Source: a virus
Lineage: Duplodnaviria; Heunggongvirae; Uroviricota; Caudoviricetes
Virus record (IMG/VR): IMGVR_UViG_2565956716_000007
Strand: one strand, 5' to 3'
Length of the DNA stretch: 37,804 nt
In this document: piece after piece, positions 1,980-29,122 of the stretch
How positions within the stretch are numbered: position 1 is the stretch's first letter
Layout of the letters: every line of letters starts with the position of its first letter
Made by a program: the position numbers and the translations under genes
Notes under the pieces: generated by a model
What the model was told of the DNA's origin: nothing
The model's input: the letters and a program-made list of their open reading frames with translations, nothing else
The model's database searches: none

Positions 1980-3080
1980 TTATTCCATTTCAAGATCATC
2001 AATCTTCACTTCGAGTTCAATACTGGTTGTAAAACCGTTATCCGGGCTGACGGTATGTGTCAGAGTCGTAATGGTCCATTCCGCATCATCTATCGGCTGT
2101 TTAAAACCACTGACCTTCACAGGCATTTCCGTGTAGAGATCTGCCCGCCCTTCCGCCAGTTGTAGCGAGAATGACGCAACGCCACGTTGCAGGCGTTCCC
2201 ACTGCATTTTCGCTGCCCGTTCAGCGTTGCTCCGGTTGGCATAAGTGCGATTAAGTACCAGCACGTTTTCATCCGTCCCCACCAGGTAATCGCCCTGCTT
2301 CGCTTCCGGCTCTTTCTTCTGCTTCTTAGTCCTGCGCTTACGCTTCACCGTAGTGCTTTCTTTCTTCGCGGGTTCGCGGGTATGCAACCAGCTGGCAATT
2401 ACCCCCGTGTAAGCTCCGCGATCTGCCAGGGTAAAGCGGTGACTGTCGCCGTCCTTACGTGTGATAGTAATCACCGGCAGTGGTTTACCGCTGGCGCTTT
2501 TGCCCTGTCCCTGCCGGATGAATAACAGATTGCCATTTTTCACCGATGCAATGGCACCGTACTGGCGCGCCAGCCGCATCAAAAAACTGCCGTCACTCTC
2601 ATTAGTCTGGTCTATATGCTCCACGGGCTTATCCGACAGGTCTTTACCCAGTGCCATCTTCAGCTTGTGCCGCGCGGCTATTTCCTTCACCACTTCCCCG
2701 ATGGTGGTGTTATGCCACGATTTTTCACGGCGGGTATTCAGCGTTTCCCGAAAATCAGCACTTCGCGCCCGGATAGTCAGGCGGTCCGGTGCGCCAGTGT
2801 GTTCAATCTCGTCCACCGTGAATGCCCCTTTCGGGAAAAGCGGCTGCCCCTTCCAGCCCAGCGCCAGCGTAATGACCGCACCACGGCGCGGCAGCACGAT
2901 TTTTCCGTCGGCGTCGTCCAGCTCCAGATCAAGCTGGTCCGCTTCAAAGCCCCGATTGTCCGTCAGCGTCAGACTCATCAGGCGGTTATCCAGCACAGTG
3001 GTGATATCCTTCCCCTCAATACTGATGCTGAATGCGGGAGTTTTGTTTCCTTTGTTAAGCAGTTCAGAGCTGAAATTCAC
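1980..3080 (-). CDS. D: tail protein gpD (P2 D-like)
   Basis: 366-aa ORF at the P2 gene D position (after U, before ogr); overlaps U by 4 nt. Confidence 0.8.
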   Translation of the reverse strand: MNFSSELLNKGNKTPAFSISIEGKDITTVLDNRLMSLTLTDNRGFEADQLDLELDDADGKIVLPRRGAVITLALGWKGQPLFPKGAFTVDEIEHTGAPDRLTIRARSADFRETLNTRREKSWHNTTIGEVVKEIAARHKLKMALGKDLSDKPVEHIDQTNESDGSFLMRLARQYGAIASVKNGNLLFIRQGQGKSASGKPLPVITITRKDGDSHRFTLADRGAYTGVIASWLHTREPAKKESTTVKRKRRTKKQKKEPEAKQGDYLVGTDENVLVLNRTYANRSNAERAAKMQWERLQRGVASFSLQLAEGRADLYTEMPVKVSGFKQPIDDAEWTITTLTHTVSPDNGFTTSIELEVKIDDLEME

Positions 3081-3562
3081 GACAGCAGCCCTCCCACCGT
3101 TTTACTGATATCGCTTAAGGCAGACGTTGCCGTGTCCTGCAGATTATTCAGTTGAGTACTGAGATCACCGAACATATCGGACAGGGATTCATCCACCCGT
3201 TTTAGCGAAAGGGTGAACTCAATCCTGCGCGGCATACCGTCGCGGAAAAACTCCGTTTTAGTCTGATTCAGTCCCTCAATCACATACATGCCGTAAATCG
3301 TGCCGCTGCCTTCAATCAGGGGCCATGCTTTCCCCTGTTCTGCCATCTGCTCCAGTGCCAGCAACGACAGCCTGCCGCCTGTTATCTCCGGCATAAGAAC
3401 ACCGGAAAGCGTCAGCATGTCGTTTTCCGGTCCCAGAAACTGCGTGGACGGACGACGGTTTACCCGGCTGTTTGCCGCATGTCGCCAGCTGCGTTGATAC
3501 TGCAGTTCCTGATACGGAACGGTGCGCAGCATAAACACGTACAATCCCAGCACCATCATCAT
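3077..3562 (-). CDS. U: tail protein gpU
   Basis: 161-aa ORF with P2 U-like size and position, translationally coupled to T and D. Confidence 0.75.
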   Translation of the reverse strand: MMMVLGLYVFMLRTVPYQELQYQRSWRHAANSRVNRRPSTQFLGPENDMLTLSGVLMPEITGGRLSLLALEQMAEQGKAWPLIEGSGTIYGMYVIEGLNQTKTEFFRDGMPRRIEFTLSLKRVDESLSDMFGDLSTQLNNLQDTATSALSDISKTVGGLLS

Positions 3563-6500
3563 GCGTCGTATCCCCCCTGATCGCTGTAGTTACTCCTGGC
3601 TTTTGCCTTCAGCCTGCGTTCACGTTCATCAAGCTGGCGTGCCACCTCCCGCGCAATATCCTGCGCACTTTGTCCTGGCTGCGTCTGAATGATGATCTGC
3701 GTCGGTGCCTCAATCCGTTGAACGAGCGGCACAGTGGCTGCGCGACTCACAATTGCTTCTCCACCTTTCGCGGGAAGTGCCAAAGGGTGCAACGGTGGAA
3801 GCTCTGCTGGCGCGGCAGCAACGCCCATCATTCCGGCAACAACGGCAGCCAGTGCAGCTGTATTTCTCCGGCTGGTCACATTTGCCGGGCCGTTAACAAT
3901 TTCCGGCCCGTTTTCACCGACGATGCCAAACTGCCCACGCGGGATATAGCCGCCGCTGTCATACATCCCCGCAAAGCCATATCCCCATGACGGAAAACCA
4001 CCCGATGGCATCATCACTTTACCGTCTGCATTCACCGTCGCAGGTTGCTGACGCGTCACGCTTTCCGGCAGTTTCGCCTTTGCAGCCTCTTTACTGACAA
4101 TGCCGAGTTTATCCAGCAACCAGGAAACGCCAGATTTCAGGGAGTCCAGCGGATGCATAACCATATTCAGCCCTTCCGCCAGTGCCTCCCCGAATCGTCG
4201 CCCCATTGCCGCTGCGCTCTGCAGTTCGGCAGAGGTCGACTTAACGGGCGTCAGCAGATCAGTAAACCAGCCCCACAGCGCCTGCACTTTGTCACCAATC
4301 CACTGGAACACAGGCTTAAGCGGTTCGAACGCTGCACTGATGGGACCTGCCGCCGCTTTGAATCCTTCCACCACGCCACCGAGAAATGCGGTGATGGGTT
4401 GCCAGTATTTCCAGACAACCAGTGCCACACCCGCCAGTGCAGTAACCACAAGACCTATCGGACTGAGCAAAGCACCTAACAGACCAGATACGGCATACAG
4501 GGCAACGCGCAACATCGCCAGTGGACCAGATGCCAGTACTCGCAGCACCGTGCCTGCGGCAGCCAGCCCGCCGCGCAGTACCGCCAGAGGATTCATAAAC
4601 ATCACAGCAACAGCACGTAAAGCGGATAATCCAGACCGCAATAGTGCAACCGGCGCACCTGCTACAGTTTTCAGGACATTTCCCGTCAGTGATGCCGTAC
4701 GGCGCAAAGACGACAACGGCGCAGTAAGTAAACCCGCTGCGTTACCCGATGAAGCAAGCCCGCGTCGCAGCACTGCCAGTGGAGCGCCAGCCAGCCAGGA
4801 CAACGCGCTGCTAGTTCGTGTTACTGCTGCCATAACGGAAGGTAACGTTTTGATGCCCAGCACAGAGAATCCCAGACGGATGACTGCCAGCGGCCCCAGC
4901 ACTGCAGCCAGCGCCACAGCCAGGGTGCCGAGGCCTACGGTAACCGCAGCCACAATAGCGGCTACTTTCATCAGTGTGCCCGTCAGTTCCGGGTTAGCTT
5001 CCACCCAGCGACGCAACGCTCCCGTAACGCTTTTCACCGTGTACAGAATATCCATCAGCGGCTGGCGCAGCGTTTCGCCCAGGCTGCTGAAGGTATTCTG
5101 CGCTCCGGTTTTAACCAGCAACCACTGAGCAGAAAGTGAGTCCTTGTTGATGTCGGATTCTTTCTGCATGGAACCGAGCGCATCATTGCCCGCTGTCAGT
5201 TTTAGCTGGCGCTGTAGTTCCGGCAGGTTGTTTGCCAGTTTCGCCGCGTCATCGCCAAACTCTTTACCAAACAACATGGTCATGGCAGACAGACGCTTGT
5301 CCTGCGGCAGTGCGTTCACCTTCTCCAGCACACGCTGGATAGTTCCCATCGCATCCTTCGTCATCTGCTTTTCAATCACTTCAGGATTGAGTTTCAGCAG
5401 ATTCATCCCTTCAAAGAAACTCTTGCTTTGCATGGTGGCAATGGACAATTCACGCACCATCGCGTTGGCAGCACTGGCAGCGACCTCCGGCGCAGCCCCC
5501 AGTGTCAGGAAGGTGGAACCCAGCGCCGCCGCTTTACGATAATCCAGACGATCAGCCACACCGCCCAGGCGTTGCATGACATCAATGATGTCTGCCCCTT
5601 TCGACATAGCGTTATCATCCAGATAGTTCAGCGCATCACCGAGCTGTTCAATATTGCGGGTTGGTATTTTGTAGAGCTGGGCGATTTTCCCCAGACTTTC
5701 TGACAGTTCATCCGCTGGCAGCTCAAAGGCTGTTGCCGCCTTTGCTGCCGTACTGGCGAAGGCCAGCAGGTCACGTTTCTGGTCCTCCCAGCTGCCGTCA
5801 GGGTTTGCCACATTCATGCGCGCACCACCTTCAACCAGTGCGGCGAAGTCCACAGCACCGTTTTCCATTGGCAGCTGTTCACTGGCAGCTTTGATGGCAT
5901 CCTGCATTTCGTAAAAACGCGCAGTGCGGTTGCCATTATCGTCACGCAGACCATTGACCTGCTTTGCCACACCTTTCATGGCATCTTCCATGCTGGTATA
6001 GCTTTTTACCGCCGCCATCACTGGCGCGCCCATTGCCAGCCCTGCAGCCGTGGTGGTGGCTCCGGCTCCTGCGATGCGATCGCGCACTTCAAGCCGTCTT
6101 GAGTATTGTTCTCTGGCAGCGTTCATCCGTGCCTGTTGTTCACCCAGACGTTTAAGTGCTTTTTGCTGGCCCTCCAGTGCCTGACGAGTTTCTTCGGCAT
6201 TTTTCTTAAGTTCTCGCTGGGCACTACTGAGTTGTCTGGTATCAATCCCTGATTCTTTAAGTGCCTGACGTTGTCTCTGGACCGCCCCCAACAAGCCGTT
6301 ATAGGTCTGCTGAAGTTCCTGTACTCGTGTTTTGGCCTGACTGAATAACTTTGCCTGCGCGGCGGTTGGCCTGTTAGTGGCAGCAAATTGTGTGGCGAGT
6401 TTTGCCGCCTCTTCGCGGGCTGCGTTCAGGTTGTTGGCTGTTATGGCTAGTTGCGAGCGCGTCTTGCGAAATTCATCAATTCTGCCAGCCTGCTTATTCA

Positions 6501-7644: not shown

Positions 7645-8817
7645 TTACGCGCTGACCTGGCTGGAGAAATTCACCAGGTACTGATCGGTGATGCGCTGAC
7701 GCAGCATCAGGTTTTCAAGTGGCGGCACTGGCGTGTAGTCGTAGTCGATGGTGAGTTTTCCGGCTTTCAGCGTGTCTTTGTCGTTCACCGACTCATCCAG
7801 CCAGCAATCACCACCAATGAGATAGCCCTGACTGACCAGGCTGCGCATTTTGGCGCGGATACCCTCGATAATGTCGCGGGCCAGCGACGGATTCAGCGGT
7901 TTATCCACCGCCCACATGTGCGCTTCTGCCATCGTGTCCGTCAGCACCTGCGCCGTGCGGGTGTAGTTTTCGAAGGCAAAGAGCGGGTCATCACTCAGGC
8001 AGCGGGAACCCCAGAAGCGAAAACCGTCTTTGCGGATAAGGGTGGTGACGTCGTTCTGGTTCAGCAGTCCCGCATCGGTTGCCGGGTCCTGCAGATCCCA
8101 GAACACATCAGCAGAAATTCCGGTGACACCGTTAACGCCCACGTTGGACAGGCTTTTGTGCCATCCGGTCTGCTCGTCAATTTTGGCGCGCAGACCAAGC
8201 GCACGGGCGGTGGCATAAGCCGTTGCTTCGGCATTCAGCACCGTGTCCCAGCCAGTAAAGTCGGGCCAGATCAGCATTCCTTCACGCTGACTGAAGTTTT
8301 CACGGTAAGTGATTGCTTCCTGCACTGTCTTGCAACCATACGCTGACAGGTAAGCAAATCCACGCAGGCTTTGCGCCACGCTCAGCAACTCAGTAGCTAC
8401 CGCCTTCGTGTCGTGACCTGGCACGCCGAGAATGCGCGGTTTAACGCCGAGCTGTGACTGGGCAGATAACAGGGCTTTCATGCCTGTTTTTTTACCTTCA
8501 GCGGTCACTGCTCCGATGATATTGGTCGTGGTTTCTTCTTCCGTTTCACCCTGCGGCACACGCACAACAACGGTCACGGGTTTTGCCTGGTCAGCGATGG
8601 CATCCAGCGAACGAGCCAGCGTGCCTGACTCACCCGCTTTACCGCTGGCAGTCAGCACATCAGTGATCAGCACGGGTTTATTAAGAGGAAACATTTTTGC
8701 ATCGGCATCATCGCCCGTGCAGACCATACCCACGATGGCGGTGCTCACCGTGGTAATGGATCGGGTGCCTTCGTTGACTTCAACAACGCGCACCCCGTGG
8801 TGGTAATCCTGAGCCAT
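7645..8817 (-). CDS. FI: contractile tail sheath protein gpFI
   Basis: 390-aa ORF, first gene of the FI-FII-E-T-U-D block; P2 FI-like size. Confidence 0.88.
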
Positions 8818-8893
8818 AGTGGCGAACCTCCTGATTGGATTAGGCTTCGCCCTATGTTGAAGTGATTGTGCCTGACAAACAGCTAAGCGCAGT

Positions 8894-8911
8894 TGTACCG
8901 TTATTCACACA
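8894..8911 (-). promoter_or_regulatory. candidate Ogr-dependent late promoter element (TGT-N12-ACA) upstream of FI
   Basis: TGTaccgttattcacACA centred about 85 bp upstream of the FI start codon. Confidence 0.45.
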
Positions 8912-8959
8912 AAATGACGGTATTTGTCTGCTTTCAGGGATAATCAAAATAAAGCTGAT

Positions 8960-9526
8960 TCAGGGAGATTTATTGTTCTTATTTGCCGGAAATTTTCGAT
9001 AAATGGTAGAAACGCCTACATCAAAAATCAGTGCAATACGCTGTCTTGATTCTCCGGCCTCGAGTAAACGCCCAATCTGTGCCCACTGTTCGCTGGTCAA
9101 CTTAGGACGGCGTCCACCTACTCTGCCTTTAGCACGAGCTGCAGCCAGCCCCGCCCTGGTACGTTCAACTATCAGTTCGCGTTCCATTTCAGCCAGGGCA
9201 CCCATGACATGAAAAAAGAAACGGCCCATTGGGGTGCTGGTATCAATACTGTCAGTCAGGCTTCGGAAATTCACGCCACGCTGGCGCAGCTCTTCTATCA
9301 GCGTAACAAGATGCCGCATACTGCGCCCCAGTCTGTCCAGCTTCCAGACAACCAGCGTGTCTCCTGCCGATAGTGTCCTGAGCAGCTTTTTCAGCCCCGG
9401 TCTGTCGGACTTGGTGCCACTGATTTTATCCTCAAAAATCCGCTCACATCCCGCACAGTTCAGTGCATTGCGTTGCAAATCGGTGTTCTGGTCATTTGTT
9501 GACACGCGTACATAGCCAATAAGCAT
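8960..9526 (-). CDS. serine recombinase, Hin/Gin/Pin/Cin-family DNA invertase
   Basis: Begins MLIGYVRVSTNDQ (catalytic Ser region), has the resolvase/invertase core and C-terminal HTH; GGGGG RBS 6 nt upstream of the ATG at 9526; abuts the invertible tail-fibre segment. Confidence 0.85.
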   Translation of the reverse strand: MLIGYVRVSTNDQNTDLQRNALNCAGCERIFEDKISGTKSDRPGLKKLLRTLSAGDTLVVWKLDRLGRSMRHLVTLIEELRQRGVNFRSLTDSIDTSTPMGRFFFHVMGALAEMERELIVERTRAGLAAARAKGRVGGRRPKLTSEQWAQIGRLLEAGESRQRIALIFDVGVSTIYRKFPANKNNKSP

Positions 9527-9581
9527 GATCATCCCCCTGAATAAAAACCGGAGATGATGCCAGTTAGCCGTTATCTCTGCA

Positions 9582-9607
9582 TTTTCATAAACGTTCAATT
9601 GGGAGAA
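9582..9607 (+). repeat. 26-bp invertase crossover site (gix/hix-like), left
   Basis: TTTTCATAAACGTTCAATTGGGAGAA is an imperfect inverted copy of 11134..11159 (17 of 26 identical, same central dinucleotide) at the junction with the alternative fibre C-terminus. Confidence 0.5.
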
Positions 9608-9937
9608 GCGGCGAAACGGGATGTTGGCTCAGGGGCGGGACAAGTTCCTGATATGAGTAGTTTTCAGTCAGGTGGCGGGTGGTTTAAGTTGCCGAGTGGA
9701 TATGTTATTCAGGCTTTCGAGGCGTCTTTTGATTCTAACGGGCTATATATCAATTTCCCTATACCATTTCCGAGTAGCGTTATTGCTATTGTGCCAGGCG
9801 TTTTAATGTCAACGACTGCCTCTCCATCACAACAATTTCCATCAATACAACGTGACGTCAATGATCTGACCCGTTTTTTTGCTAAATACAATATGGGTGG
9901 AATGAATGCTTCATATTTTATTGCTATAGGAAAATAA
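9597..9937 (+). other. alternative tail-fibre C-terminal cassette (silent in this orientation)
   Basis: Encodes LGEAAKRDVGSGAGQVPDMSSF..., parallel to the current H C-terminus [24 protein letters not shown]...; no independent start or promoter. Confidence 0.55.
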
Positions 9938-9939
9938 CC

Positions 9940-10362
9940 ATGTATTTATTTTCGCCAAGCACATTGGGTTTTTATCCCATCGAGATGAAAGAAGAATACC
10001 TTACCAATGGTTCATTACCATCTGATGTTATAGAGGTTTCTGATAGCGTCAGAAATGAATATAACTTTGCGCCACCTGAAGGCAAACAGCTAAGTTCCAG
10101 CCAAAATATGCCAGTCTGGATTGATATTCCACCGGCGACACGTGAAGAGTTGATTGCTGCTGCCGAAAAAGAACGCCAGAAACTACTGGCCCATGCTGAC
10201 GCTGTTATGCTGGACTGGCGAACTGAACTGATGCTGGGTGAAATCAGCGACGCCAACAAAGCTAAGCTGTCGGCGTGGCTGGCCTATAAAAATGAAGTTA
10301 AGTCGGCTGATGTGACAACTGACCCGGAGCGTGTTAACTGGCCTGTTCCCCCGGAGGCGTAG
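9940..10362 (+). CDS. tail fibre assembly protein (alternative copy within invertible segment)
   Basis: 140-aa paralogue of the 146-aa ORF at 10334..10774, with the same tail-fibre-assembly pattern (PxDVIEV, WPxxP). Confidence 0.7.
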   Translation: MYLFSPSTLGFYPIEMKEEYLTNGSLPSDVIEVSDSVRNEYNFAPPEGKQLSSSQNMPVWIDIPPATREELIAAAEKERQKLLAHADAVMLDWRTELMLGEISDANKAKLSAWLAYKNEVKSADVTTDPERVNWPVPPEA

Positions 10363-10774
10363 GCCATTCAATATCTGGCGCACCGGAAGTATCGACCAGT
10401 TCCAGTGCGTCCAGATAATCCAGCCACAAATTATATTGCGCCAGTTCCTCACCTTTCAGACGACCAATAGCCGCTTTACCAGGCCATTGTTTACTGTTCA
10501 TATAATCGTTGGCCTGATTAATCAGTTGCTGCTTTTCCTGTTCGGCTGCAGCAATCTGTTCCTCATGTGTTGGTGGTGGAATTTCAGACCATGCAGGAAA
10601 ACCATTTTCTCCAGCGATACGGATTTTTCCTTTCGGCGGTAATCCGGAAAACTCAATATACACTTGCTCATCAACTTCAACAGCATCATCTGGCCATGAG
10701 TCAGCTTGAGTGTAATCCTCTTTCATCTCCAGCGGATAGAAAGAGTTTGTAGTCGCGGAATATATGTAATTCAT
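10334..10774 (-). CDS. G: tail fibre assembly protein gpG
   Basis: 146-aa ORF immediately downstream of H; tail-fibre-assembly family features. Confidence 0.75.
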   Translation of the reverse strand: MNYIYSATTNSFYPLEMKEDYTQADSWPDDAVEVDEQVYIEFSGLPPKGKIRIAGENGFPAWSEIPPPTHEEQIAAAEQEKQQLINQANDYMNSKQWPGKAAIGRLKGEELAQYNLWLDYLDALELVDTSGAPDIEWPTPPGEQAS

Positions 10775-10795
10775 TTTTCACTCCATATAGCTAAA

Positions 10796-12196
10796 TTAAC
10801 AGCCTAACGCTAAAAATGAAGCGCCGAGGCCAGGAGTACTGGCTCTGGATATAAATTTAACCGGGTCGGGACTAAAACCTGCACAGGCAATATAACCAAC
10901 AGCCCCGCTATCTGGTGTGTAGTCTTGTGAGACCAAAACACGCAGACATCTGTTTGGAAATGCAATCGGGAAATGGGTTACTACATCCTGTGCAATGCCT
11001 GGTGCGCCGATTGAGCCCCACTGAAGAATAAAACCTGATGGTAATTTTTGATATCCAGTACCTGAAACAGAAAGCGTGAAGCTACCCATATCAGGTATCT
11101 GATTCGCCCCTGTCCCTACATTCCTTTTAGCCGCTTCTCCCAAACCAAGGTATGCAAGAAGACCGGCAACATCCTTCCCACTCAAATTGGTAAGCGTATT
11201 GTCCAGCGGTTGTTTACCTGCCAGCGCATTAAGCATTGTCGTGGCAAAGTTCGGATCATTCCCCAGTGCCGCCGCCAGTTCGTTCAGTGTATCCAGTGCC
11301 GCGGGTGCAGAACCCACCATTGCTGCAATCGCTGATTTCACAAAAGCTGTAGTGGCAATCTGTGTATTGTTGACCGACTGTGCCGCAGTAGGTGCTGTTG
11401 GCGTTCCGGTGAGTGCTGGACTCGACAGCGGCGCTTTTTGTGCCAGCGCATTGTTAATGGTGGTACTGAAATTCGGATCATTGTTAATGGCTGCGGCTAT
11501 TTCTTTCAGCGTGTCCAGCGTGGCTGGCGCACCATTAATAAGAGCCGTCAGAGCCGCCTGAACAAACGCGGTGGTCGCAATCTGCGTGGTGTTATTCCCT
11601 GCTGCTGGCGTTGGCGCTTTGGGTGTCCCGGTAAACGTCGGACTTTCTTTGGGTGCATACTGTGAATGCGGGTCCGGTGCGGCAAGATGTTTTGCCATCT
11701 GATCATCCGCGTACACCTTCAGCTCCAGTGCCTTGTCATCCACATACTTGCGGGTTGCCAGCACTACAGCAGGGTCGATTTTCAGGGTGATATTGTCCGT
11801 GCTGCTGGTAATCAGCACCATGCGCACGGTCTGAGTGCGCCCGCTACCTTCAGCCAGTTGCGGCTTATAGCTTTCCGGGCAGTTTCCCACGGCAATCAAT
11901 GCCCCGGATTCATCAAACAGGCCCACTTCACGTATCCACCAACCGCCCTCGTTTTCAGGGATCACCTGTTCGGCAATAATCTGGCTGCTGTTCTGCGGGT
12001 CGATATAAAGCATATTCAGCGCAGCCCGGCGTTTCTCATTTACCAGTGCCGTCTGCTTTGCGTCCGGCGTTGGCAATACTCCACCGCCATCGCCCACCGC
12101 CATATGGGTAATTTTTAGCGGCACACCGAGCGCGGCGGCGCTGGCAAGTTTCGCCGCGCCAATATCCGTCAGCAGGGTATAAAATTTTGTGCTCAT
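10796..12196 (-). CDS. H: tail fibre protein gpH (C-terminus inside invertible segment)
   Basis: 466-aa ORF with an internal duplicated ~45-aa module; C-terminal 113 aa lie beyond the crossover site. Confidence 0.85.
11134..11159 (-). repeat. 26-bp invertase crossover site inside gene H, right
   Basis: TTCTCCCAAACCAAGGTATGCAAGAA resembles hix/gix sites (AAACC..GGT core) and marks where H and the alternative cassette start to diverge. Confidence 0.5.
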
Positions 12197-12798
12197 GGAT
12201 TCACTCTCATTGTGTCAATAACATGGACCGCCCCGCCTTCATGCGCGGTGCCACCGGAAATAATCGTTTCGTTGATATACGGATAGATCGTGATTTCTTC
12301 GCCAAGATAGCTGGCAGCTCCCACCCAATGCGGGCCGCTGGTCTGCAGATTGATGGACATGCCGATCATGTGACGGCTACATGGTTTGGCATCGCTTATC
12401 AGTCGCTCAAGTTCCAGATAGGTATCTTCAGTGATGCCCTGGTCCTGCACACCAATGTCCAGACGAAACGTGCCCGGTGTTTCTCCGGTCTGCCACCACT
12501 CAATAATGCGGATCAGGAAGCCGAACGGCTCCACCACCCGCCGTACGGCACTGGTGGTTCCTTTGTGCTGATGAATATAAAAAGCATCCTTCACTACCTG
12601 GCGTTTGACGCTTTCTGTCCAGCCCTCGTCCCAGCGATCCACAGAGAACGCCCAGGCGAGATAAGGCAGGAAGCTGACCGGACAGGTAGCCGGATTCCAC
12701 AAGTCACGCAGCGGCACCTGCAAATCAGAAATCCCGCTACAGGTTTGCGCCAGTCGGCGCTCCAGTGAAGTTGAACCCGGTGGCAGCAGACTATTCAT
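12193..12798 (-). CDS. I: baseplate protein gpI
   Basis: 201-aa ORF between J and H, coupled by 4-nt overlap. Confidence 0.75.
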
Positions 12799-13699
12799 CC
12801 GTTCCTCCGTTGGTTACGCTCCACTGCGTACATGATGCCGCCTGTGTTTTGTTCAGGACCACATCCGCCAGCGGAGAAGCCAGTTCCACACGTTGAACAC
12901 CCTCAACATGCAGAGCAGCAAAGATGGCGCTACGGCGAATATCCCGGCCAAGCCTCGTCTGGCTGGCGATGTACTTCTGCAGGCTGGTTTTTGCCGCTGC
13001 CATTACCGGCTCTGCTTCCGGTCCCGGATAGAGAAAAATGGTGGCTTCCACGCGATACGGGATGATTTCTGCGCTGCGAACCGTCAGACGGTCAGCCACC
13101 GGGCGGACGTTCTCACTGTTCAGAGCTTTTTCCACCACGTCCAGCAGGTCTTTTTCTGCAGTTCCATCGCCTTCGCGGCTAAGGACAGTCAGCACCACCT
13201 CTGCAGGTGCCGGGCTGGTTGCACTGGCATCCGCCACCCTACCGTCGGCGCTTCGGGCATGAAATTCATAAGCTGCAGTTGGCCCCGCAACAGAAAGCCC
13301 TTCAAAGGCTGCAGGCACACGCAGGCGTAACGCTTCATCGCTTTCCATCACAGCTGCAACGGGCGGCACAGCATCATTATCAGCAGGCGTCACCGTCAGG
13401 CGTGTCACGTTGTAGTTGGCAGCGAGCTGGTCAAGATCGCCGCCCATCGCGTAAGCCACCATCACCGCCTGCGCGGCTTCGTTAATGCGCTGGCGCAGAA
13501 GCAACTCACGGTAAGCGTTCTCCTGCAACAATTTAGTGACGGGTTCAGATTCCAGTTCCAACGTTCGGATCACGGCTTCCTGCTCATCTTTCGGATGAAG
13601 CGCCACAAATTCTGCCTTGCGTTCGGCAAGCAGCGTCTCAAAGTCCGGCACATCCACAATCTGCGGTGCAGGCAACTGCGAAAGGTCAATCACTGCCAT
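12791..13699 (-). CDS. J: baseplate protein gpJ
   Basis: P2 J-like size and position; start taken at the internal Met (MAVIDLSQLP) just after the end of W. Confidence 0.75.
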   Translation of the reverse strand: MAVIDLSQLPAPQIVDVPDFETLLAERKAEFVALHPKDEQEAVIRTLELESEPVTKLLQENAYRELLLRQRINEAAQAVMVAYAMGGDLDQLAANYNVTRLTVTPADNDAVPPVAAVMESDEALRLRVPAAFEGLSVAGPTAAYEFHARSADGRVADASATSPAPAEVVLTVLSREGDGTAEKDLLDVVEKALNSENVRPVADRLTVRSAEIIPYRVEATIFLYPGPEAEPVMAAAKTSLQKYIASQTRLGRDIRRSAIFAALHVEGVQRVELASPLADVVLNKTQAASCTQWSVTNGGTDE

Positions 13700-14045
13700 T
13701 CTCTGCTCCTGTTGATACGGAAAGGGACACAGGCACACCGTTATTCCGCCGCCCGGTCAGCTCCACCACCATAGAACCGTCAAAGTTGCTGTTGATGGTG
13801 ATGGAATCCAGCATCAGCCGTGGCTCCCAGCGACTCAGCGCCACATACACTGCCGACATGACCTGCAGGCGTAATGCCGGATTTTGTGGCTGATCTATTA
13901 AAACCGACAGGAGGGAACCATATTCCCGGCGGGCAATACGGCTACCCTGCGGTGTCAGCAGAATGTCCCGCACCGACTGGCGCAGATGATCAATATCAGT
14001 AATGACTTTGCCGCTGGTATTGTTCATCCCGCTATAAAGCGTCAT
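13686..14045 (-). CDS. W: baseplate wedge protein gpW
   Basis: 119-aa ORF between V and J. Confidence 0.75.
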   Translation of the reverse strand: MTLYSGMNNTSGKVITDIDHLRQSVRDILLTPQGSRIARREYGSLLSVLIDQPQNPALRLQVMSAVYVALSRWEPRLMLDSITINSNFDGSMVVELTGRRNNGVPVSLSVSTGAENGSD

Positions 14046-14620
14046 ACCGGGCCTCCGGTTGTATCGCCGCCTTTCAGGACGCCAGTATGCTGATGCGCAT
14101 CAACCACGATCCCGTTAGAACTCATCGCTCCGCCGCCCTGGGTAACGCCACCATTGATCACCACTTCGCTGTTAATGCGCGTGCGGTCAGCCTCCAGTAC
14201 AAACTCACTGGTTTTCATGGTGATGTTGTCAGCAGCCTCAATGACCATTGATTTGATGCCCCTGACATACCAGCGCCCGGTGGCGGGTTCGTATTCAAAC
14301 CAGCCACCGTCAGGATGTTCTGTCACGCAGGCGTCCGCCGACGTCGACGGTGGTGCGAACTGATTCGAATAGACAGCGGGCAGCGCAAAGGCGGTTTCCA
14401 GATTGCCGCCCAGACTCAGCAGCACCACCTGCTCACCTTCCGATGGTCGCCACCATGTACGGGCATTCCCGGCACGCAGCGTCAGCCAGCTGATCCAGTT
14501 GGTTTCAAGCTCGCCCGTTTTCACCCGGCAAAGCCAGTTTTCCCTGTCCACTTCGGTGACTACCCCTGTGCGGATCAGGTTGGTGATAAGGCGCATGATT
14601 TCGGTTAATTGTGCGTTCAT
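14042..14620 (-). CDS. V: baseplate spike protein gpV
   Basis: 192-aa ORF; N-terminus MNAQLTEIMRLITNLIRTG resembles the P2 V N-terminus as I recall it. Confidence 0.8.
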   Translation of the reverse strand: MNAQLTEIMRLITNLIRTGVVTEVDRENWLCRVKTGELETNWISWLTLRAGNARTWWRPSEGEQVVLLSLGGNLETAFALPAVYSNQFAPPSTSADACVTEHPDGGWFEYEPATGRWYVRGIKSMVIEAADNITMKTSEFVLEADRTRINSEVVINGGVTQGGGAMSSNGIVVDAHQHTGVLKGGDTTGGPV

Positions 14621-20638: not shown

Positions 20639-22405
20639 ATGAACACCACACTGACACCCGCAGATCTCGATCCCCGTAGGCAGGCCATGCTGCTGTACTT
20701 TCAGGGATACCGCGTAGCCCGCATTGCTGAAATGCTGGGCGAGAAAGTTGCAACCGTTCACAGCTGGAAAAAACGCGACAAGTGGGGTGACTATGGGCCG
20801 CTGGATCAGATGCAGCTCACCACCGCCGCACGCTACTGCCAGCTCATCATGAAGGAGCACAAAGAAGGGAAAGATTTCAAAGAGATTGACCTGCTGGCGC
20901 GCCAGTCGGAACGCCACGCGCGGATCGGCAAGTTTAACAATGGCGGCAACGAAGCCGACTTAAACCCTAACGTCGCCAACCGTAACAAAGGCCCGCGCCG
21001 TCAGCCGGAAAAGAATGTTTTCACCGATGAGCAGATTGAGAAGCTGGAAGAAATCTTCCATTCCTCCATGTTCAACTACCAGCACCACTGGTGGGAAGCT
21101 GGAAAAACCAACCGCATCCGCAACCTGCTGAAGTCACGCCAGATCGGCGCGACTTTTTACTTTGCCCGTGAAGCCCTGATTGACGCCCTACTGACAGGAC
21201 GCAACCAGATTTTCCTTTCTGCCAGTAAGGCACAGGCTCACGTCTTTAAGCAGTACATCATCGACTTCGCCAAAGAAGTCGAGGTGGAGCTGAAAGGCGA
21301 TCCGATGGTGCTTCCTAACGGGGCCACGCTTTACTTCCTCGGCACCAATGCCCGCACGGCCCAGAGTTACCACGGCAACCTGTATCTGGATGAATATTTC
21401 TGGATACCGAAATTCCAGGAGCTGCGCAAAGTGGCTTCCGGTATGGCTATTCACAAAAAATGGCGACAAACCTATTTTTCCACGCCATCCAGCCTGACAC
21501 ACAGTGCTTATCCGTTCTGGTCCGGTGCGCTGTTTAACCGTGGGCGCAACAAAGCCGATAAGGTGGACATCGACCTGTCCCACAACAATCTGGCCCCCGG
21601 CCTACTGTGCGCAGACGGGCAATACCGCCAGATAGTCACCGTGGAAGATGCGGTGCGCGGCGGCTGTAACCTGTTCGACCTCGACCAGCTACGCATGGAG
21701 TACAGCCCGGACGAATATCAGAACCTGCTCATGTGCGAGTTCGTGGACGATCTCGCGTCCGTGTTCCCGCTCAGCGAACTGCAGGCGTGCATGGTGGACA
21801 GTTGGGAAGTCTGGACCGACTTTCATGCACTGGCCCTGCGCCCGTTTGGCTGGCGCGAGGTGTGGATCGGTTATGACCCGGCAAAAGGTACGCAGAATGG
21901 CGACAGCGCCGGATGCGTGGTGGTGGCACCGCCAGCCGTGCCAGGCGGTAAGTTTCGCATTCTTGAGCGTCACCAGTGGCGCGGGATGGACTTCCGCGCC
22001 CAGGCTGATGCAATCAAAAAACTGACCGAGCAGTACAACGTGACCTATATCGGCATCGACTCGACAGGCGTCGGTCACGGGGTTTATGAGAACGTGAAAG
22101 CGTTCTTTCCTGCCGTCCGGGAGTTTGTCTACAACCCCAACGTTAAAAACGCCCTGGTACTCAAGGCCTACGACATTATCAGCCACCGCCGTCTGGAGTT
22201 TGACGCCGGGCACACCGACATTGCGCAGTCATTCATGGCAATCCGTCGCGCCACCACCGCCAGCGGCAACCGCCCGACCTATGAAGCTAGCCGCAGCGAA
22301 GAAGCCAGCCACGCCGATCTGGCCTGGGCAACAATGCACGCACTGTTTAACGAACCGCTGCAGGGCGAGTCCGCCAATACCAGCAATATTGTGGAGATTT
22401 TTTGA
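20639..22405 (+). CDS. P: terminase large (ATPase) subunit gpP
   Basis: 588-aa ORF, P2 P-like size, divergent from O; recognised as the large terminase by size and position, nuclease-domain motifs not verified. Confidence 0.9.
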   Translation: MNTTLTPADLDPRRQAMLLYFQGYRVARIAEMLGEKVATVHSWKKRDKWGDYGPLDQMQLTTAARYCQLIMKEHKEGKDFKEIDLLARQSERHARIGKFNNGGNEADLNPNVANRNKGPRRQPEKNVFTDEQIEKLEEIFHSSMFNYQHHWWEAGKTNRIRNLLKSRQIGATFYFAREALIDALLTGRNQIFLSASKAQAHVFKQYIIDFAKEVEVELKGDPMVLPNGATLYFLGTNARTAQSYHGNLYLDEYFWIPKFQELRKVASGMAIHKKWRQTYFSTPSSLTHSAYPFWSGALFNRGRNKADKVDIDLSHNNLAPGLLCADGQYRQIVTVEDAVRGGCNLFDLDQLRMEYSPDEYQNLLMCEFVDDLASVFPLSELQACMVDSWEVWTDFHALALRPFGWREVWIGYDPAKGTQNGDSAGCVVVAPPAVPGGKFRILERHQWRGMDFRAQADAIKKLTEQYNVTYIGIDSTGVGHGVYENVKAFFPAVREFVYNPNVKNALVLKAYDIISHRRLEFDAGHTDIAQSFMAIRRATTASGNRPTYEASRSEEASHADLAWATMHALFNEPLQGESANTSNIVEIF

Positions 22406-23445
22406 TGGGAAAGAGTAAGAAAAACCGCGCTGCGGCGACGAAACGGAGCCAGCATAAAAATCAAACTTCAGCCGAAGCTTTCAGCTTTGGTGATCCCATT
22501 CCTGTACTGGACCGCCGCGAACTGCTGGACTATGTGGAATGCGTACAGACGGATCGCTGGTATGAGCCACCCGTAAGTTTTGACGGACTGGCGCGCACCT
22601 TCCGGGCTGCCGTGCATCACAGTTCCCCGATTGCAGTAAAGTGCAACATTCTGACCAGTACCTATATCCCTCATCCGCTGCTCAGCCAACAGGCTTTTTC
22701 GCGTTTTGTGCAGGACTATCTGGTATTTGGTAACGCCTACCTGGAGAAACGCACGAACCGATTCGGTGAAGTTATCGCCCTTGAGCCTGCGCTGGCAAAA
22801 TACACCCGACGAGGGTTAGACCTGGAGACCTACTGGTTTGTGCAATACGGCATGACTACGCAGCCGTATCAGTTCACGAAAGGCAGCATTTTTCATCTGA
22901 TGGAACCGGACATCAACCAGGAGATCTACGGCCTGCCCGGTTATCTTTCTGCCATTCCGTCAGCCCTGCTCAACGAGTCCGCCACGCTGTTCCGCCGTAA
23001 GTATTACATCAACGGCAGCCATGCAGGCTTCATCATGTACATGACCGATGCCGCGCAGAACCAGGAGGATGTGAACAACCTCCGCAATGCGATGAAAAGC
23101 GCCAAAGGCCCTGGCAACTTCCGCAACCTGTTTATGTACTCGCCTAACGGCAAAAAGGACGGGCTTCAGATTATTCCTCTGTCAGAAGTCGCGGCAAAGG
23201 ATGAATTTTTGAATATCAAGAACGTGAGCCGGGATGACATGATGGCAGCGCATCGTGTTCCGCCACAGATGATGGGGATTATGCCGAATAATGTCGGGGG
23301 GTTTGGGGATGTGGAGAAGGCCAGCCGCGTTTTTGTTCGAAATGAACTGATCCCCCTACAGAAGCGTTTTGAGGAACTGAATAGCTGGGCCAATGAACAA
23401 GTAATTCGTTTTGATTCTTATGCATTTGAACCCAACATAACTTAA
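22402..23445 (+). CDS. Q: portal protein gpQ
   Basis: 347-aa ORF coupled to P by 4-nt overlap; P2 Q-like size. Confidence 0.9.
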   Translation: MMGKSKKNRAAATKRSQHKNQTSAEAFSFGDPIPVLDRRELLDYVECVQTDRWYEPPVSFDGLARTFRAAVHHSSPIAVKCNILTSTYIPHPLLSQQAFSRFVQDYLVFGNAYLEKRTNRFGEVIALEPALAKYTRRGLDLETYWFVQYGMTTQPYQFTKGSIFHLMEPDINQEIYGLPGYLSAIPSALLNESATLFRRKYYINGSHAGFIMYMTDAAQNQEDVNNLRNAMKSAKGPGNFRNLFMYSPNGKKDGLQIIPLSEVAAKDEFLNIKNVSRDDMMAAHRVPPQMMGIMPNNVGGFGDVEKASRVFVRNELIPLQKRFEELNSWANEQVIRFDSYAFEPNIT

Positions 23446-23496: not shown

Positions 23497-24738
23497 CTAT
23501 AAATCTTCTTGTGTAGGAAGTGTCGAGATATCACCTCCATAATTTATTTCAATCTCTGGAAATCGTTCTCGCCACTGTTCAAAAGTTTTTGGAATAGTTT
23601 TTTTCCATTTATGTACATTTGTGAAATAACGAATTTCACCATCATTGAGATAAATAGCCCATATCTCGCCATCTCTACCAAACATCACCATACCTTCCGC
23701 AATGGTATAAAGTCCTCTAACTCCTCCCTGATAAGCCTTTGCGACAAAAGTATCAAGATTATCGTGCTCACCTATTTGCTCCATCACTTTTTTCAGTTCA
23801 AAGTAATATTGCCCCATAACGTTGTATAATCTCTGAAGTTCCATTTCATTTGCAAAACCAAATAAAAACAAATGATCCTCTGCACAACGAAACTCACCAT
23901 CAAAAAAGGCCCCCATACCTCGCCAGTATTGACAACTAACGGTCTCACTTATCCTAATATATCGTTTACCATCAAATATGCTGCGCCTAAAACTCAACTC
24001 GCCAAATTCATTACTTCCAGGTATTTTTATTCTAGCGTAAGCTGAATCTCTAGCTACAAAAACCGCCTCTCCTGTAATACTCCCAGAATGTGATCCATTC
24101 ATAACTACTAAATCAAAAAGAAAACCATTTGACGATGTTTCACGAATAAATAATTTGCCAAAATTACTTCTGCGATTGTCCTTGTACCACTCCCCCCACC
24201 ATATTGGTGCATTTAAACCTGAAGAAATAGCTCCTTGGCTTGAATCACTCAAGGACTCCCTTAATGCAGTTTCAAGTCGCCCTTGCAGTAAGCTTCTTAC
24301 CTCAGGTTTTGAATCACTATCAGGGTCCATAGTATATGCAATTACCCTCCGTCCTCTTAAGTCAAAAGGAAGTTCTTCTGGAGAACCATAAAATGTATTC
24401 TGGACCATGATTACTCTATCCCAGCCTAGCTGGGATACTGCATATCCTAATTCAATCAAAACATTTGGATTAGGTGTCTTCTTATCCTCAGACCTTCCAT
24501 TTATGATAGAAACATCGGCAACAAAAACATCTGAAAGTGATATTTTATTAAAAATGCTTTCGCTAATTGATGGTGAGCCATTTAAACCATTAGTATCACG
24601 ATCCAAGACTGGCTCCAATGTTTCTGTTTCATCCTTTTTTATTGCTTTTAGAGATCTAACCAAAGCATCTTGAATTAAATTTCTATTACATTTTCCATTT
24701 AAATCAGATTGCCAAGAGTAAAAAACTATTCTTTGCAT
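23497..24738 (-). CDS. hypothetical protein, N-terminal TIR-like domain with uncharacterised C-terminal domain (candidate defence cargo)
   Basis: 413-aa ORF with GAGGAG RBS 8 nt upstream; N-terminus RIVFYSWQSD...DVFVADVS...NPNVLIELGYA...LPFDLRGRRVIAY fits the TIR-like pattern; AT-rich relative to flanking genes. Confidence 0.7.
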   Translation of the reverse strand: MQRIVFYSWQSDLNGKCNRNLIQDALVRSLKAIKKDETETLEPVLDRDTNGLNGSPSISESIFNKISLSDVFVADVSIINGRSEDKKTPNPNVLIELGYAVSQLGWDRVIMVQNTFYGSPEELPFDLRGRRVIAYTMDPDSDSKPEVRSLLQGRLETALRESLSDSSQGAISSGLNAPIWWGEWYKDNRRSNFGKLFIRETSSNGFLFDLVVMNGSHSGSITGEAVFVARDSAYARIKIPGSNEFGELSFRRSIFDGKRYIRISETVSCQYWRGMGAFFDGEFRCAEDHLFLFGFANEMELQRLYNVMGQYYFELKKVMEQIGEHDNLDTFVAKAYQGGVRGLYTIAEGMVMFGRDGEIWAIYLNDGEIRYFTNVHKWKKTIPKTFEQWRERFPEIEINYGGDISTLPTQEDL

Positions 24739-25629: not shown

Positions 25630-28044
25630 TTAATACAGGTTCCGCCACTGATCATCTTCCTGCAAACGCTGGTTCCGATAGAAGATACGCAGGCCTGCTC
25701 CTGACGGAATACTGCCTCCGCGAAGGAGTAAATCGACCTCTTTCTCGCTGCCATCAAATCCTCTGGACTTCAGCTCATACACGAGCTGCAGTCGCTGATG
25801 GTCTGTAATTCGCTGTTTGTAGTCTTTACGCCGTTTCGGTTTCACCAGGCGTAACCTTGCTGCCAGTTCCCGGCGCTCTTTTTTGCTCATACTGTGCAGG
25901 TAATCGTGCAACTCCTTGTCATCCATGCTGGTAATGTCCGTTCTGGGGTCCCCATCAGCTGATTTATCTTTCTCCTGTTGGTTCAAATTTTCAGCAAGGG
26001 GACAGTTATTGCCACGAGTCCAAGGGGCGCAAGCGCCCTGGTCGGCTGCCGCCTCCTGAACGTCAACGGCCTTACGAACCATTTTCCACTTCACGGCATG
26101 AGTGCAGATCTTGCCCTCTGCAATAGGTGACCAGATGCCATAAATACGAATGCCGTGATCGCCATAGGCGGTCGGCTCTTCGTTGATTTCATACGCAGTT
26201 CTGATGAGGTGATATTTACGGGGAACCAGTACGCCGCCCTGCTTCATGATGTAGGTGGCAAAACAACCAGCATCAGCAGCAGCCAGGATTGCATCAAGGC
26301 GCGGGTTATCCAGTACCGGCGCACCTGCTTTTTTGTCACCCTGTTGCCTTGCCGCCTGACCAGCCAGCAATCGCAGTTCACGGTAAGCCTGACGCCCCGG
26401 AATGCCAAAGAAGCGGAATTGCTGAACACGATGCAGAGACGCCCAGGCATTCACGTATTCAGCGTTATCACGCAGGGATTTACCCGTTTCCTTGCTGATC
26501 TCGCCAGCCAGACCACGCCCGTCAATGTTCTTACTGATATATTTCGCGATGTAGCTTGTCGGCGTTCCTTTGCGCGGGTTAATCAACTCAGACTTAAAGC
26601 GCGGCCCCGTGTTATTGCCCAGCTCCTCGCGGTCTTCACGGATGGCAAACTTACGCAGTAATGCAGTGATGGCGCGGCGGTCTTTTTTGCGCATAAAACA
26701 CAACAGGTGCCAGTGAACTGTACCGTCATGATGCGGCTCAGCCACCCGTACGCCATACCAGCGCAATCCGGCTTTGTGCATCGCCTTACGAAATGCAGCA
26801 AACATGCCGACCAAATAATCACTGCTTTGTCTTACCGTCGCATTTGTCCAGTTCGGGTTGGGCCTGCCGTTATTTAGCGTGGAATGGAAACGTGACGGAC
26901 AGGTGATGGTGTAGAAAACGGCGCAGTCACCGCGCATTTCCGCGATAAGTTCCAGACCTTTAACACAGGCCATCATCTCATTGCGGCGATGCGCAGGGTT
27001 GCTGCTGCTGGCGTTTACCACATCCTCCATGTCCAGCGTGTCGCCGTCTTCGTTCACCAGTTCATGAGAACGGAAAAACTCCAGCGACTTACGGCGCTGC
27101 TCACGTTTATGCATCACGGCTTCATAGCTGACATAAGGAGATGCTTTTTTGCTGACCAGGCAGACAGCGCGCAACTGCTCTTCCCGCCATTCGCAACGCA
27201 TCTTCCATAATTTCCGATACCACCAGTCGGCGCACAGCATACGCGCCAGCGAACCCGGAATGAGTTCATAGGGCACAGGTTTGCGGCGGTTTCTTTTCCG
27301 GCGGAGTTGCTCAAACGCAGGCGGTATGACATCCAGTCGCAGGGTTTCTGCTGCCACCTTTTCCCATGTCTTGCGGATTTCTTCCGGCTTAACATCATCG
27401 GAGGCGTACAAATCACCACAAGCGGCATCAAGACACATGCTCATATGCGCAGCGACAAGGGTGGACAGGCGTTTCACCTGATCCTGACTCATTTCAGGCA
27501 GGATCAGCAGACCGTCCAGCCCTTCATGGCTTGCCATAAAACGAAAAGATGCAGATAGCTGGCTGTCGCGTACATGCTCCAGTCGTTCCAGGCATGGCTT
27601 AATCGTCTCACGCAAATAGCGGGAATAAGCCTTTGGCCTGCCCAGGTTGCTGAAGTATTTAATACGTTGCATCAGCGGCTTGCTGATATGGGAAGGCTGG
27701 GCGTTGACATCCGCCAGAATGACCATGTCTGGATTAAAACGCTGCTGCTCATGCGCCAGCTTTGCCCGGCTAATTAGCTTATCCTGCTCCATTTCGCGCT
27801 GGACAGGATCACGGGATTCATTAAAGAAATAACGCTCCCAGACCTGATCACTCAGTGCCTCGCGGCGCAGTTGTTCCTGCTCGTTATCGGCAGCGTACAG
27901 AGTGATCAGGTTTGAAAGCGCAGAAACCGGCGCAACTTCCGCCGGGTCCAGATAAGGGTTAATGGCCTTTTTCGGGCTGTTCCATGAGAATGCTGCGGCA
28001 GCCTCGTTAAAGCCGCAGCAGTTGTTCATATCGGCATGACTCAT
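25630..28044 (-). CDS. A: replication initiation protein gpA (rolling-circle endonuclease)
   Basis: 804-aa ORF, the largest early gene, at the P2/186 A position; start overlaps the dam stop. Confidence 0.85.
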
Positions 28045-28898: not shown

Positions 28899-29122
28899 AC
28901 AGCACCTCCGTTGTAATGTTTGCCTTTCAGCTCTGCGATTTCCTGACAGGTAATGCAAAGCTGCACACCTGGAATGGCGCGGCGGCGTGCTGGCGGAATT
29001 GGCGCTTCACACTCAATGCAAAGCACGCGGGACACGCCCGGCGTTTTGGCACGGGCAGCACGGATATGGCGCTGGCGTTCTTCTTCAACGCGCTGCTGTA
29101 CAAGATCCATTGCATCAGCCAT
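28895..29122 (-). CDS. TraR/DksA-family C4 zinc-finger protein
   Basis: 75-aa ORF with CIECEAPIPPARRRAIPGVQLCITC. Confidence 0.7.
   Translation of the reverse strand: MADAMDLVQQRVEEERQRHIRAARAKTPGVSRVLCIECEAPIPPARRRAIPGVQLCITCQEIAELKGKHYNGGAV

Follow-up and report, generated by a model that had tools for sequence, protein, structure and literature searches.

The window, by which we mean the whole 37,804-nt stretch of viral DNA that was analysed, carries the P2 gene order, with the invertase and the segment set into it: D-U-T-E-FII-FI, invertase, segment, H-I-J-W-V-S, and so on. Pfam matches typical of the P2 family (Tail_P2_I, Baseplate_J, Phage_GPD, Phage_P2_GpU, Phage_tube, Phage_cap_P2 and Phage_GPA) are found in it, and the phage records closest to it are Peduoviridae. 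The locus of interest lies between G and FI. The phage P2 reference has fun(Z) in this interval, and the Z/fun position given in the original prediction is therefore correct; a 2024 preprint describes the position likewise for P2-like phages in general. The features of the locus are as follows.

8960..9526, minus strand: serine DNA invertase of the Gin/Cin/Pin family, 188 aa (Pfam Resolvase, 2.3e-53; HTH_7, 5.7e-16)
9437..9508, minus strand: predicted enhancer homologue spanning nt 19-90 at the 5' end of the invertase gene, by homology to P1 cin
9582..9607: left crossover site, TTTTCATAAACG-TT-CAATTGGGAGAA, core at 9594-9595, matching the half-site consensus
9594..11148: predicted invertible segment, 1553 bp between core centres
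9596..9937, plus strand: silent alternative H tip (cassette B), 113 aa and a stop codon, Gp53-like_C, with no fibre N-terminus of its own
9940..10362, plus strand: silent assembly chaperone of cassette B, 140 aa (Caudo_TAP, 4e-29)
10334..10774, minus strand: assembly chaperone of cassette A (the fused, expressed state), homologue of P2 G, 146 aa (Caudo_TAP, 1.6e-38)
10796..12196, minus strand: tail-fibre gene H, 466 aa (Phage_tail_fib N-terminal domain, 1.3e-64; Gp53-like_C, 1.2e-13)
10796-11146, minus strand: variable tip of H (cassette A), residues 351-466, within the segment
11135..11160: right crossover site, within the coding sequence of H; minus-strand sequence TTCTTGCATACC-TT-GGTTTGGGAGAA, core at 11147-11148
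11147-12196, minus strand: constant part of H, residues 1-350, outside the segment

The segment is thus composed of two convergent cassettes, each encoding a fibre C-terminal tip and its own assembly chaperone. A Gp53-like_C and Caudo_TAP pair is present on each strand, just as expected from the earlier description of a mirrored H C-terminus and assembly gene. The two chaperone genes overlap at their 3' ends by 29 nt and their products are about 36% identical, while tips A and B have few identities past the first 24 or so residues. The unfused cassette has no constant N-terminal part of H and stays silent. Scanning 8700-12400 for promoters and terminators gave nothing exceeding the shuffled expectation: there was no promoter reading into cassette B on the plus strand and, by a simple promoter scan, none for the invertase, with no sigma-70-like site upstream of it. 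When the segment is flipped in silico, cassette B joins residue 350 of H in frame to give an intact 463-aa protein, with chaperone B following 2 nt later. The core lies in codon 350 of H, so that exactly 350 N-terminal residues are common to both orientations. A close relative of cassette B is found fused in E. coli E7476, where H is full-length and expressed: the cassette B tip agrees with the end of that protein at 109 of 113 residues (96%), and the cassette B chaperone at 135 of 140 residues with the chaperone that follows this fused H.

The invertase gene lies just outside the left site, as had been proposed, with its start codon 55 bp away and outside the segment. A longer reading frame starting from TTG at 9598 is an artefact, as the homologues begin at the ATG at 9526. 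The protein aligns over residues 1-183 with the structures of Mu Gin (3UJ3/4M6F) at E = 1e-92, and far more weakly with gamma-delta resolvase (E = 1e-34). In the alignment to the Gin structures, the catalytic Ser9 is kept and the motif YVRVSTNDQ is intact. Identity is 139/188 (74%) to Mu Gin, 144/188 to P1 Cin (77%; range for P1 and P7, 77-79%) and 156/188 (83%) to PinE of enterotoxigenic E. coli (ETEC) H10407, the closest named invertase; the copy in E. coli S56 is identical at 188/188 residues. The Hin residues K47, K/R48, K/R51, Q151, R154 and L155 are reported to be conserved only in invertases that depend on Fis and an enhancer (PMC3798978). Their counterparts in the window's invertase, where numbering is that of Hin minus one, are K46, K47, R50, Q150, R153 and L154, and the inversion reaction would probably be Fis dependent.

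An enhancer homologue is located where the family would place it. In the P1 record, nt 19-90 of cin are annotated as 'enhancer of Cin-mediated C-segment inversion', and the corresponding stretch of the window is 76% identical. It contains two 15-mers of the Fis consensus, at 9490-9504 and 9442-9456, with centres at 9497 and 9449, 48 bp apart. The proximal one and the left core are 97.5 bp apart, an arrangement matched in Mu; for native Hin the enhancer spacing is about 100 bp (PMC3798978). Both 15-mers match (G/T)NNYRNNWNNYRNN(C/A) in nine of nine invertase genes compared, including Mu gin, P1 and P7 cin and pinE, this consensus having been broadened from one with G...C ends, which alone gave only the distal site. 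The call of an enhancer rests on positional conservation and the P1 annotation, since the degenerate consensus has 5-9 chance matches in each invertase gene; synonymous-site conservation across the enhancer was examined with few independent sequences only. By homology, then, the window probably carries a recombinational enhancer with two Fis sites in cis.

Crossover sites were sought with a half-site consensus, TTNTNNNAAACS, derived from Mu gix and the e14-like pix site only and applied as a palindrome. At two or fewer mismatches there are exactly two matches in the 37.8-kb window, at 9582-9607 and 11135-11160, where 0.07 would be expected; a two-match outcome arose in none of 100 shuffles. 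More than two sites at this threshold, as in shufflon-like systems such as the three-repeat EPEC P2 locus or Min of p15B, were not found in the window: the one candidate for a third site, a match with three mismatches at 11320-11345, has the wrong core (CT) and is at chance level (0.51 expected). Alignment to a consensus of the hix/gix/cix/pix type, the check suggested with the original prediction and made here with the Mu gix and e14-like pix sites, thus leaves both sites recognisable. Their cores, TT at 9594-9595 and AA at 11147-11148, are the same dinucleotide in inverted orientation, as had been claimed. The left site was placed correctly at 9582..9607, but the right site lies one base to the right of the predicted 11134-11159. 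The right site contains ACCTTGGTTTGGGAGAAG, a repeat reported for the e14, Mu-like and P2 loci that flip experimentally (PMC4272514). The outer half of the left site is identical to that of the site adjoining the S56 invertase. Its inner half-site has CAATTG beside the core, as against GGTTTG in other sites, and shows two mismatches to the consensus.

The extent of the inverted repeat differs from what was first described. Each strand has a single copy of the 14-mer TTGGGAGAAGCGGC (9599-9612 and 11130-11143). The longest inverted repeat of the interval 8500-12500, 65 nt long at 78% identity (9599-9663 versus 11079-11143), has this 14-mer as its core. The shared stretch had been placed within the 26-bp sites; this holds for 9 nt of the 14-mer, whereas the other 5 nt run past the inner half-site. 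The statement that the arms diverge exactly after this stretch does not hold, for 78% identity persists 65 nt inward, and the true divergence of the arms runs outward from the core dinucleotide. The inward likeness is there because both arms encode LGEAAKR(N/D)VG(T/S)GA(N/G)Q(I/V)PDM.

We consider it highly likely, with a probability of about 0.88, that the region 9594..11148 is a site-specific inversion switch of the Gin/Cin/Pin type acting on the tail-fibre tip that binds the receptor. The P2-like (Peduoviridae) prophage of E. coli in which it resides looks complete. All the structural elements of an invertible tail-fibre segment with a Pin/Gin-like invertase are found, and the architecture is that of the Mu G and P1 C segments, as originally claimed: a constant fibre N-terminus outside, a site within the coding sequence, opposed cassettes and an adjoining invertase of the Gin family. 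Dimers of the invertase would bind the two 26-bp sites, host Fis would bind the two enhancer sites at the start of the invertase gene, and the three DNA elements would come together in an invertasome. All four strands would then be cut at the TT/AA cores with a 2-nt stagger, one half of the tetramer would rotate by 180 degrees and the ends would be rejoined, leaving the 1.55-kb segment reversed. By this route the late V-W-J-I-H operon would read H residues 1-350 either into tip A and chaperone A, the state of the window, or into tip B and chaperone B. A lysogenic culture should in that case release particles with two fibre tips, probably of two receptor specificities. Judged from its parts, the window's own copy is expected to invert. 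Tips A and B presumably confer different host ranges, given the divergence of the Gp53-like_C tips and by analogy with Mu and P1. The prophage probably exists, as the original prediction had it, as a mixed population with two host ranges; good indirect backing comes from the recombinant junctions in other E. coli genomes and from the inversion measured in EPEC E2348/69 at a homologous locus whose cassette is 98.5% identical.

The switch is an ordinary, intact-looking one that swaps the tail-fibre tip. Elements of this kind are common, annotated and already characterised, the switch type has been described before, and nothing here alters what is known of DNA inversion systems. The G segment of Mu with Gin is alike in its 26-bp sites with TTNTNNNAAACS half-sites, in a crossover site that in both is about 68 bp upstream of the invertase start, in an enhancer within the 5' end of the invertase gene, and in a constant fibre N-terminus outside two opposed cassettes of tip and chaperone. 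It differs in length (3059 bp versus 1553 bp), in a variable tip of several hundred residues rather than about 115, and in a core that is TC/GA rather than TT; moreover, Mu is a transposable phage whereas the window is a P2-type prophage, and the constant fibre parts belong to different families. The C segment of P1 and P7 with Cin has in common the conserved stretch annotated as enhancer and the logic of a tail-fibre switch. In P1, however, it is the 3' end of cin that abuts cixL, whereas the window resembles Mu in that the invertase gene faces the site with its 5' end, and the P1 segment is about 4.26 kb long compared with 1.55 kb. The P segment of e14 with Pin, the flipping of which has been shown in K-12 (PMC4272514), has a site beside pinE, TTTTCTTAAACG-TT-GGTTTGGGAGAA, that is near-identical to the window's, and the cassette beside pinE in the e14-like element of ETEC H10407 matches cassette A at 99.3% identity. 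Nevertheless, e14 is a defective element of lambdoid type with another baseplate and fibre constant region, whereas the window's switch sits in a P2-type tail operon.

Closer in setting are the prophages of enteropathogenic E. coli (EPEC) E2348/69. There Goldberg et al. 2014 (PMC4272514) showed by paired-end sequencing and PCR that both orientations coexist in two P2-like prophages, in a Mu-like prophage and in e14. The P2-like loci are likewise placed between the fibre genes and the sheath gene FI, and their invertase has the same orientation. The simple one, of about 1.9 kb and 93% in one orientation (PMC4272514), has a cassette 98.5% identical to cassette A that ends in the same kind of site, although the EPEC P2 invertase is 78% identical to the window's and the prophage with the simple locus is a truncated remnant. 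The second EPEC P2 locus has three repeats and four states, compared with two sites only in the window. Among Peduoviridae, the same module with the same gene order is present in Escherichia phages Cartapus and 500465-1 and in prophages of E. coli S56 and GmM062; their invertases are 98-100% identical to the window's, but their cassette content differs. The Cartapus record annotates the gene as 'Mu phage Gin invertase homolog'. Phage P2 itself shares the tail order H-G ... FI-FII-E-T-U-D, but is without the invertase and the second cassette and has fun(Z) between G and FI.

Public genomes contain the junctions that a flip would produce. A search of 5426 complete E. coli genomes and 50,697 phage records found no entry with cassettes A and B together, the best coverage being 59-62%; flipping was therefore tested for each cassette and with an in-silico recombinant query. 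E. coli S56, with its identical invertase and a left flank 99.5% identical, holds cassette A inverted in the silent position, and the sequence at its junction, TTTTCATAAACG-TT-GGTTTGGGAGAA, agrees exactly with the recombinant expected from a flip. Among the 5426 complete genomes, cassette A is fused to a window-type H in 24 and silent beside a window-type invertase in 99. Between GmM062 and EcPNK004, a 1930-bp segment, 99.9% identical, is inverted between collinear flanks, with the break at the core. Between L3_E36 and E7476 (the pair L005/L006) the inverted segment is 1496 bp, with the point of exchange precisely at the TT core; one of the sites in this pair shares the inner half-site CAATTGGGAGAA with the left site of the window. 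Strain PCP06235 was rejected as a flip partner, for its prophage, although inserted at an identical place in the chromosome (flank 99.9% identical), has other, partly degraded cassettes.

The switch could nevertheless be a frozen relic, a former inversion system of which this copy no longer flips, through drift of the left half-site or an unexpressed invertase, so that only fibre A is made. The two mismatches of the left inner half-site lie directly beside the core, the simple scan found no sigma-70-like promoter upstream of the invertase, the predominance of one orientation at the simple EPEC locus implies that switching can be slow (PMC4272514), and relatives carry degraded silent cassettes, namely PCP06235 and, with a frameshifted chaperone gene, L005. 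We regard this as improbable, though the least improbable of the alternatives. The invertase reading frame is intact and identical to the S56 copy that adjoins a recombinant junction, both genes of cassette B are intact and each about 96% identical to the expressed E7476 copy, and conservation extends to the enhancer and to the residues that contact Fis. Furthermore, the CAATTG half-site has recombined in the lineage of L005/L006, the naturally flipped pair with CAATTGGGAGAA at one of its sites; this is the only natural flip found with that half-site, and the invertase concerned is 83% identical to the window's (156/188, E7476 copy).

The two orientations might also have arisen with the invertase not responsible, either by RecA-dependent recombination at the inverted repeats or by horizontal replacement of cassettes. 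The 65 nt shared by the arms, the mosaic cassettes moving between e14-like and P2-like elements, and segments that are more conserved than their flanks (99.9% versus 96.5%, and 99.1% versus 92-95%) are in keeping with such an origin. It is very unlikely all the same, as efficient recombination by RecA needs perfect homology longer than the 14 nt present here. In L005/L006 the exchange falls exactly at the 2-bp core though the inner half-sites differ (CAATTGGGAGAA versus GGTTTAAGGGCA) and thus offer no homology on which to recombine, and in the experiments on EPEC and K-12, single colonies showed inversion at measurable frequency (PMC4272514). Hardly credible is the reading that the plus-strand frame at 9554-9937 is an independent small gene, as homologues are labelled by PGAP ('gp53-like domain-containing protein'). 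An ATG at 9554 does open a 127-aa frame, and relatives bear such annotations, but intergenic spacer and crossover site take up its first 14 codons, the N-terminal fibre domain is missing from the product, the frame exactly continues H after a flip, and the same sequence is the C-terminus of full-length H in E7476. The inversion switch remains the preferred reading, and its main significance is for annotation. Short frames that stand beside such invertases under the labels 'gp53-like domain-containing protein' or 'phage tail protein' would be silent fusion cassettes rather than independent genes, the assembled orientation would be just one of two population states, and both tips would need considering in prophage typing, host-range prediction and the re-use of fibres.

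The near-identical sites of e14-like, Mu-like and P2-like prophages and the conserved convergent overlap of the chaperone genes might, speculatively, act as portable joints at which unrelated prophages in one cell exchange cassettes or segments, possibly through the invertase. This would account for segments that are more alike than their flanks and for the close match of cassette A in an e14-like element, and the switch would then also be a cassette-capture device; we hold it to be doubtful, with perhaps some chance of being right. The general idea of a mosaic exchange of fibre genes is old and is said to go back to Sandmeier, Iida and Arber in 1992. Similarity of the cassettes to other genomes begins or stops near the chaperone overlap, at 10332-10338 in the case of cassette A.

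The window is a stretch of E. coli chromosome bearing a P2-like prophage, and its right flank, with ypjA/EhaD, matches 5426 of 5426 complete E. coli genomes. The tail-region genes all have P2-family Pfam matches, as expected, and are arranged as follows:

14042-14620, minus strand: V, P2-family Pfam match
between V and J, minus strand: W, P2-family Pfam match
12791-13738, minus strand: J, P2-family Pfam match
12193-12798, minus strand: I, P2-family Pfam match
10796-12196, minus strand: H, tail fibre
10334-10774, minus strand: assembly chaperone after H (cassette A)
9940-10362, plus strand: second chaperone (cassette B)
9596-9937, plus strand: fibre tip fragment (cassette B)
8960-9526, minus strand: serine invertase
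7645-8817, minus strand: sheath FI, then tube FII, E, T, U and D

The locus had been placed at the P2 Z/fun position, rightly so because the reference record of phage P2 has fun(Z) as the content of the G-FI interval. The constant part of H carries a direct repeat (11340-11371 and 11562-11593, 222 nt apart) that reflects a duplicated fibre-shaft module of ~74 aa with the partial motif LDTL.E.AAA.NNDPNF. The two chaperone genes converge, their 3' ends sharing 29 nt (10334-10362), and annotations of most of the examined relatives show the same overlap. Where single cassettes resemble other genomes, the similarity begins or stops close to this overlap, which therefore appears to be the inner joint of every exchangeable cassette.

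The longest inverted repeat within 8500-12500 pairs 9599-9663 with 11079-11143 (65 nt, 78%). It contains the exact 14-mer after which the two arms had been said to diverge; they do not do so. Similarity persists inward, because both arms encode the same peptide, and it is outward that divergence starts, at the core. To avoid circularity, crossover sites were sought with half-sites drawn solely from Mu gix and the site adjoining pinE in an e14-like element. The resulting palindromic pattern, TTNTNNNAAACSNNSGTTTNNNANAA, at no more than two mismatches has exactly two matches in the 37.8-kb window, against a chance expectation of 0.07. Read from outside to inside, they are:

9582-9607, left crossover site: TTTTCATAAACG-TT-CAATTGGGAGAA
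11135-11160, right crossover site: TTCTTGCATACC-TT-GGTTTGGGAGAA

The cores are identical and the orientation inverted. In the original prediction the right coordinates were one base off.

The 188-aa invertase matches the crystal structures of Mu Gin (E = 1e-92), has the catalytic serine, and comparisons that included tblastn give identities of 74% with Gin, 77% with Cin and 83% with a PinE; a homologue is already annotated as Gin-like in phage records. Its helix B has the basic residues, and DNA-binding helix 1 the Q/R/L residues, that an eLife study (PMC3798978) describes as being conserved in Fis/enhancer-dependent invertases and no others. Nucleotides 19-90 of cin are annotated in the P1 record as the inversion enhancer, and over the corresponding stretch (9437-9508) the window gene is 76% identical to it. 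This stretch holds two Fis-consensus 15-mers, 48 bp from centre to centre, both kept in 9/9 aligned invertase genes. The proximal one lies 97.5 bp from the left core, the same as in Mu, and the corresponding distance for native Hin is roughly 100 bp (PMC3798978). On sequence evidence, 9437-9508 would be a recombinational enhancer with putative Fis sites, and inversion probably depends on Fis. The spacer from the left site to the start codon of the invertase contains a weak hairpin with a T run after it (9546-9565, minus strand), which might end the late H operon ahead of the invertase; near-identical sequence lies ahead of pinE in ETEC H10407.

When 9594-11148 is inverted in silico, H retains its first 350 residues, its last 116 are swapped in frame for 113 others, and the start of chaperone B falls 2 nt past the new stop. 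Tip B is ~96% identical to the C-terminus of the full-length H of E. coli E7476, and chaperone B is ~96% identical to the chaperone of that strain. The silent cassette is thus intact.

Other genomes show both orientations of related segments, which is evidence for inversion. Between L3_E36 and E7476 the flanks are collinear (92-95% identical) and a segment of 1496 bp (99.1%) is inverted. The four junctions of this pair show reciprocal exchange precisely at the TT core; one of its sites has the unusual CAATTG inner half-site of the window left site. GmM062 and EcPNK004, with an invertase of the window type, differ by a 1930-bp inverted segment (99.9% identical; flanks 96.5%). An artificial query, the flipped window with the invertase and cassette A in the silent position, has a contiguous match in 99 genomes, the best being S56 (98.9%, in one piece), where the invertase is 100% identical to that of the window, the left flank matches over 3.9 kb at 99.5% and the recombinant site is exactly as predicted. 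In 24 genomes cassette A is joined to this H, as it is in the window. The segment presumably flips in the present strain as well, and the two tips may confer different host ranges. In both flip pairs (L3_E36 locus 3484-4978 with E7476 locus 3484-4979; GmM062 locus 2195-4124 with EcPNK004 locus 3632-5561) the segment has diverged less than the prophage around it, which hints that invertible segments may spread between prophages.

Such switches are known. Goldberg et al. 2014 (PMC4272514) found co-existing orientations by paired-end mapping, confirmed by PCR, in e14 of K-12 and, in EPEC E2348/69, in a Mu-like prophage and in two of the P2-like kind. Of the P2-like loci, one is a simple switch with two states; the other has three repeats and four states. 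Their table lists repeats such as AAACCTTGGTTTGGGAGAAGG, of which the portion ACCTTGGTTTGGGAGAAG is present in the window right site. The simple EPEC P2 locus has the gene order of the window (segment, invertase, sheath), and the cassette nearest its invertase shares 98.5% identity with cassette A. A cassette 99.3% identical to cassette A also adjoins pinE in ETEC H10407, within an e14-like element whose baseplate and fibre region is quite unlike that of the window; the similarity of the two cassettes (window 10332-11148, element locus 3501-4317) ends precisely at the crossover core. A 2024 preprint on hotspots of P2-like phages reports that Z/fun often encodes a DNA invertase, with adjacent genes inverting. 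Matches to the region occur in roughly 2600 complete E. coli genomes, about half of the total. The observation behind the original prediction is confirmed, with corrections on two points (the right-site coordinates and the divergence of the arms), and its interpretation is supported. The evidence points to a Gin/Pin-family invertible tail-fibre switch of the kind already described in P2-like prophages, from which it does not depart; what has no counterpart among 5426 E. coli genomes and 50,697 phage records is its combination of cassettes.

Elsewhere in the window, 23497-24738 (minus strand) is a candidate gene for anti-phage defence. Its 413-aa product has a TIR domain (Pfam CAP12/Pycsar effector TIR, 6.6e-6; PADLOC TIR effector, 1.8e-9). 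With portal Q (22402-23445) on one side and replication A (25630-28044) on the other, the gene occupies the old/tin cargo hotspot of P2. Immediately upstream of the replication A homologue is a D12-class (Dam-like) N6-adenine DNA methyltransferase (28041-28958, minus strand). Directly right of the prophage integrase (31480-32493), a 506-aa ORF (32506-34026, plus strand) has no match in Pfam and PADLOC searches; the corresponding region of matching E. coli genomes is annotated 'gapS1: GapS1 family protein'. The ypjA/EhaD-type autotransporter with AIDA repeats (34719-37147, minus strand) is split into two overlapping ORFs, 34719-36215 and 36155-37147, and may be frameshifted; in the closest genome it is likewise annotated in two pieces.
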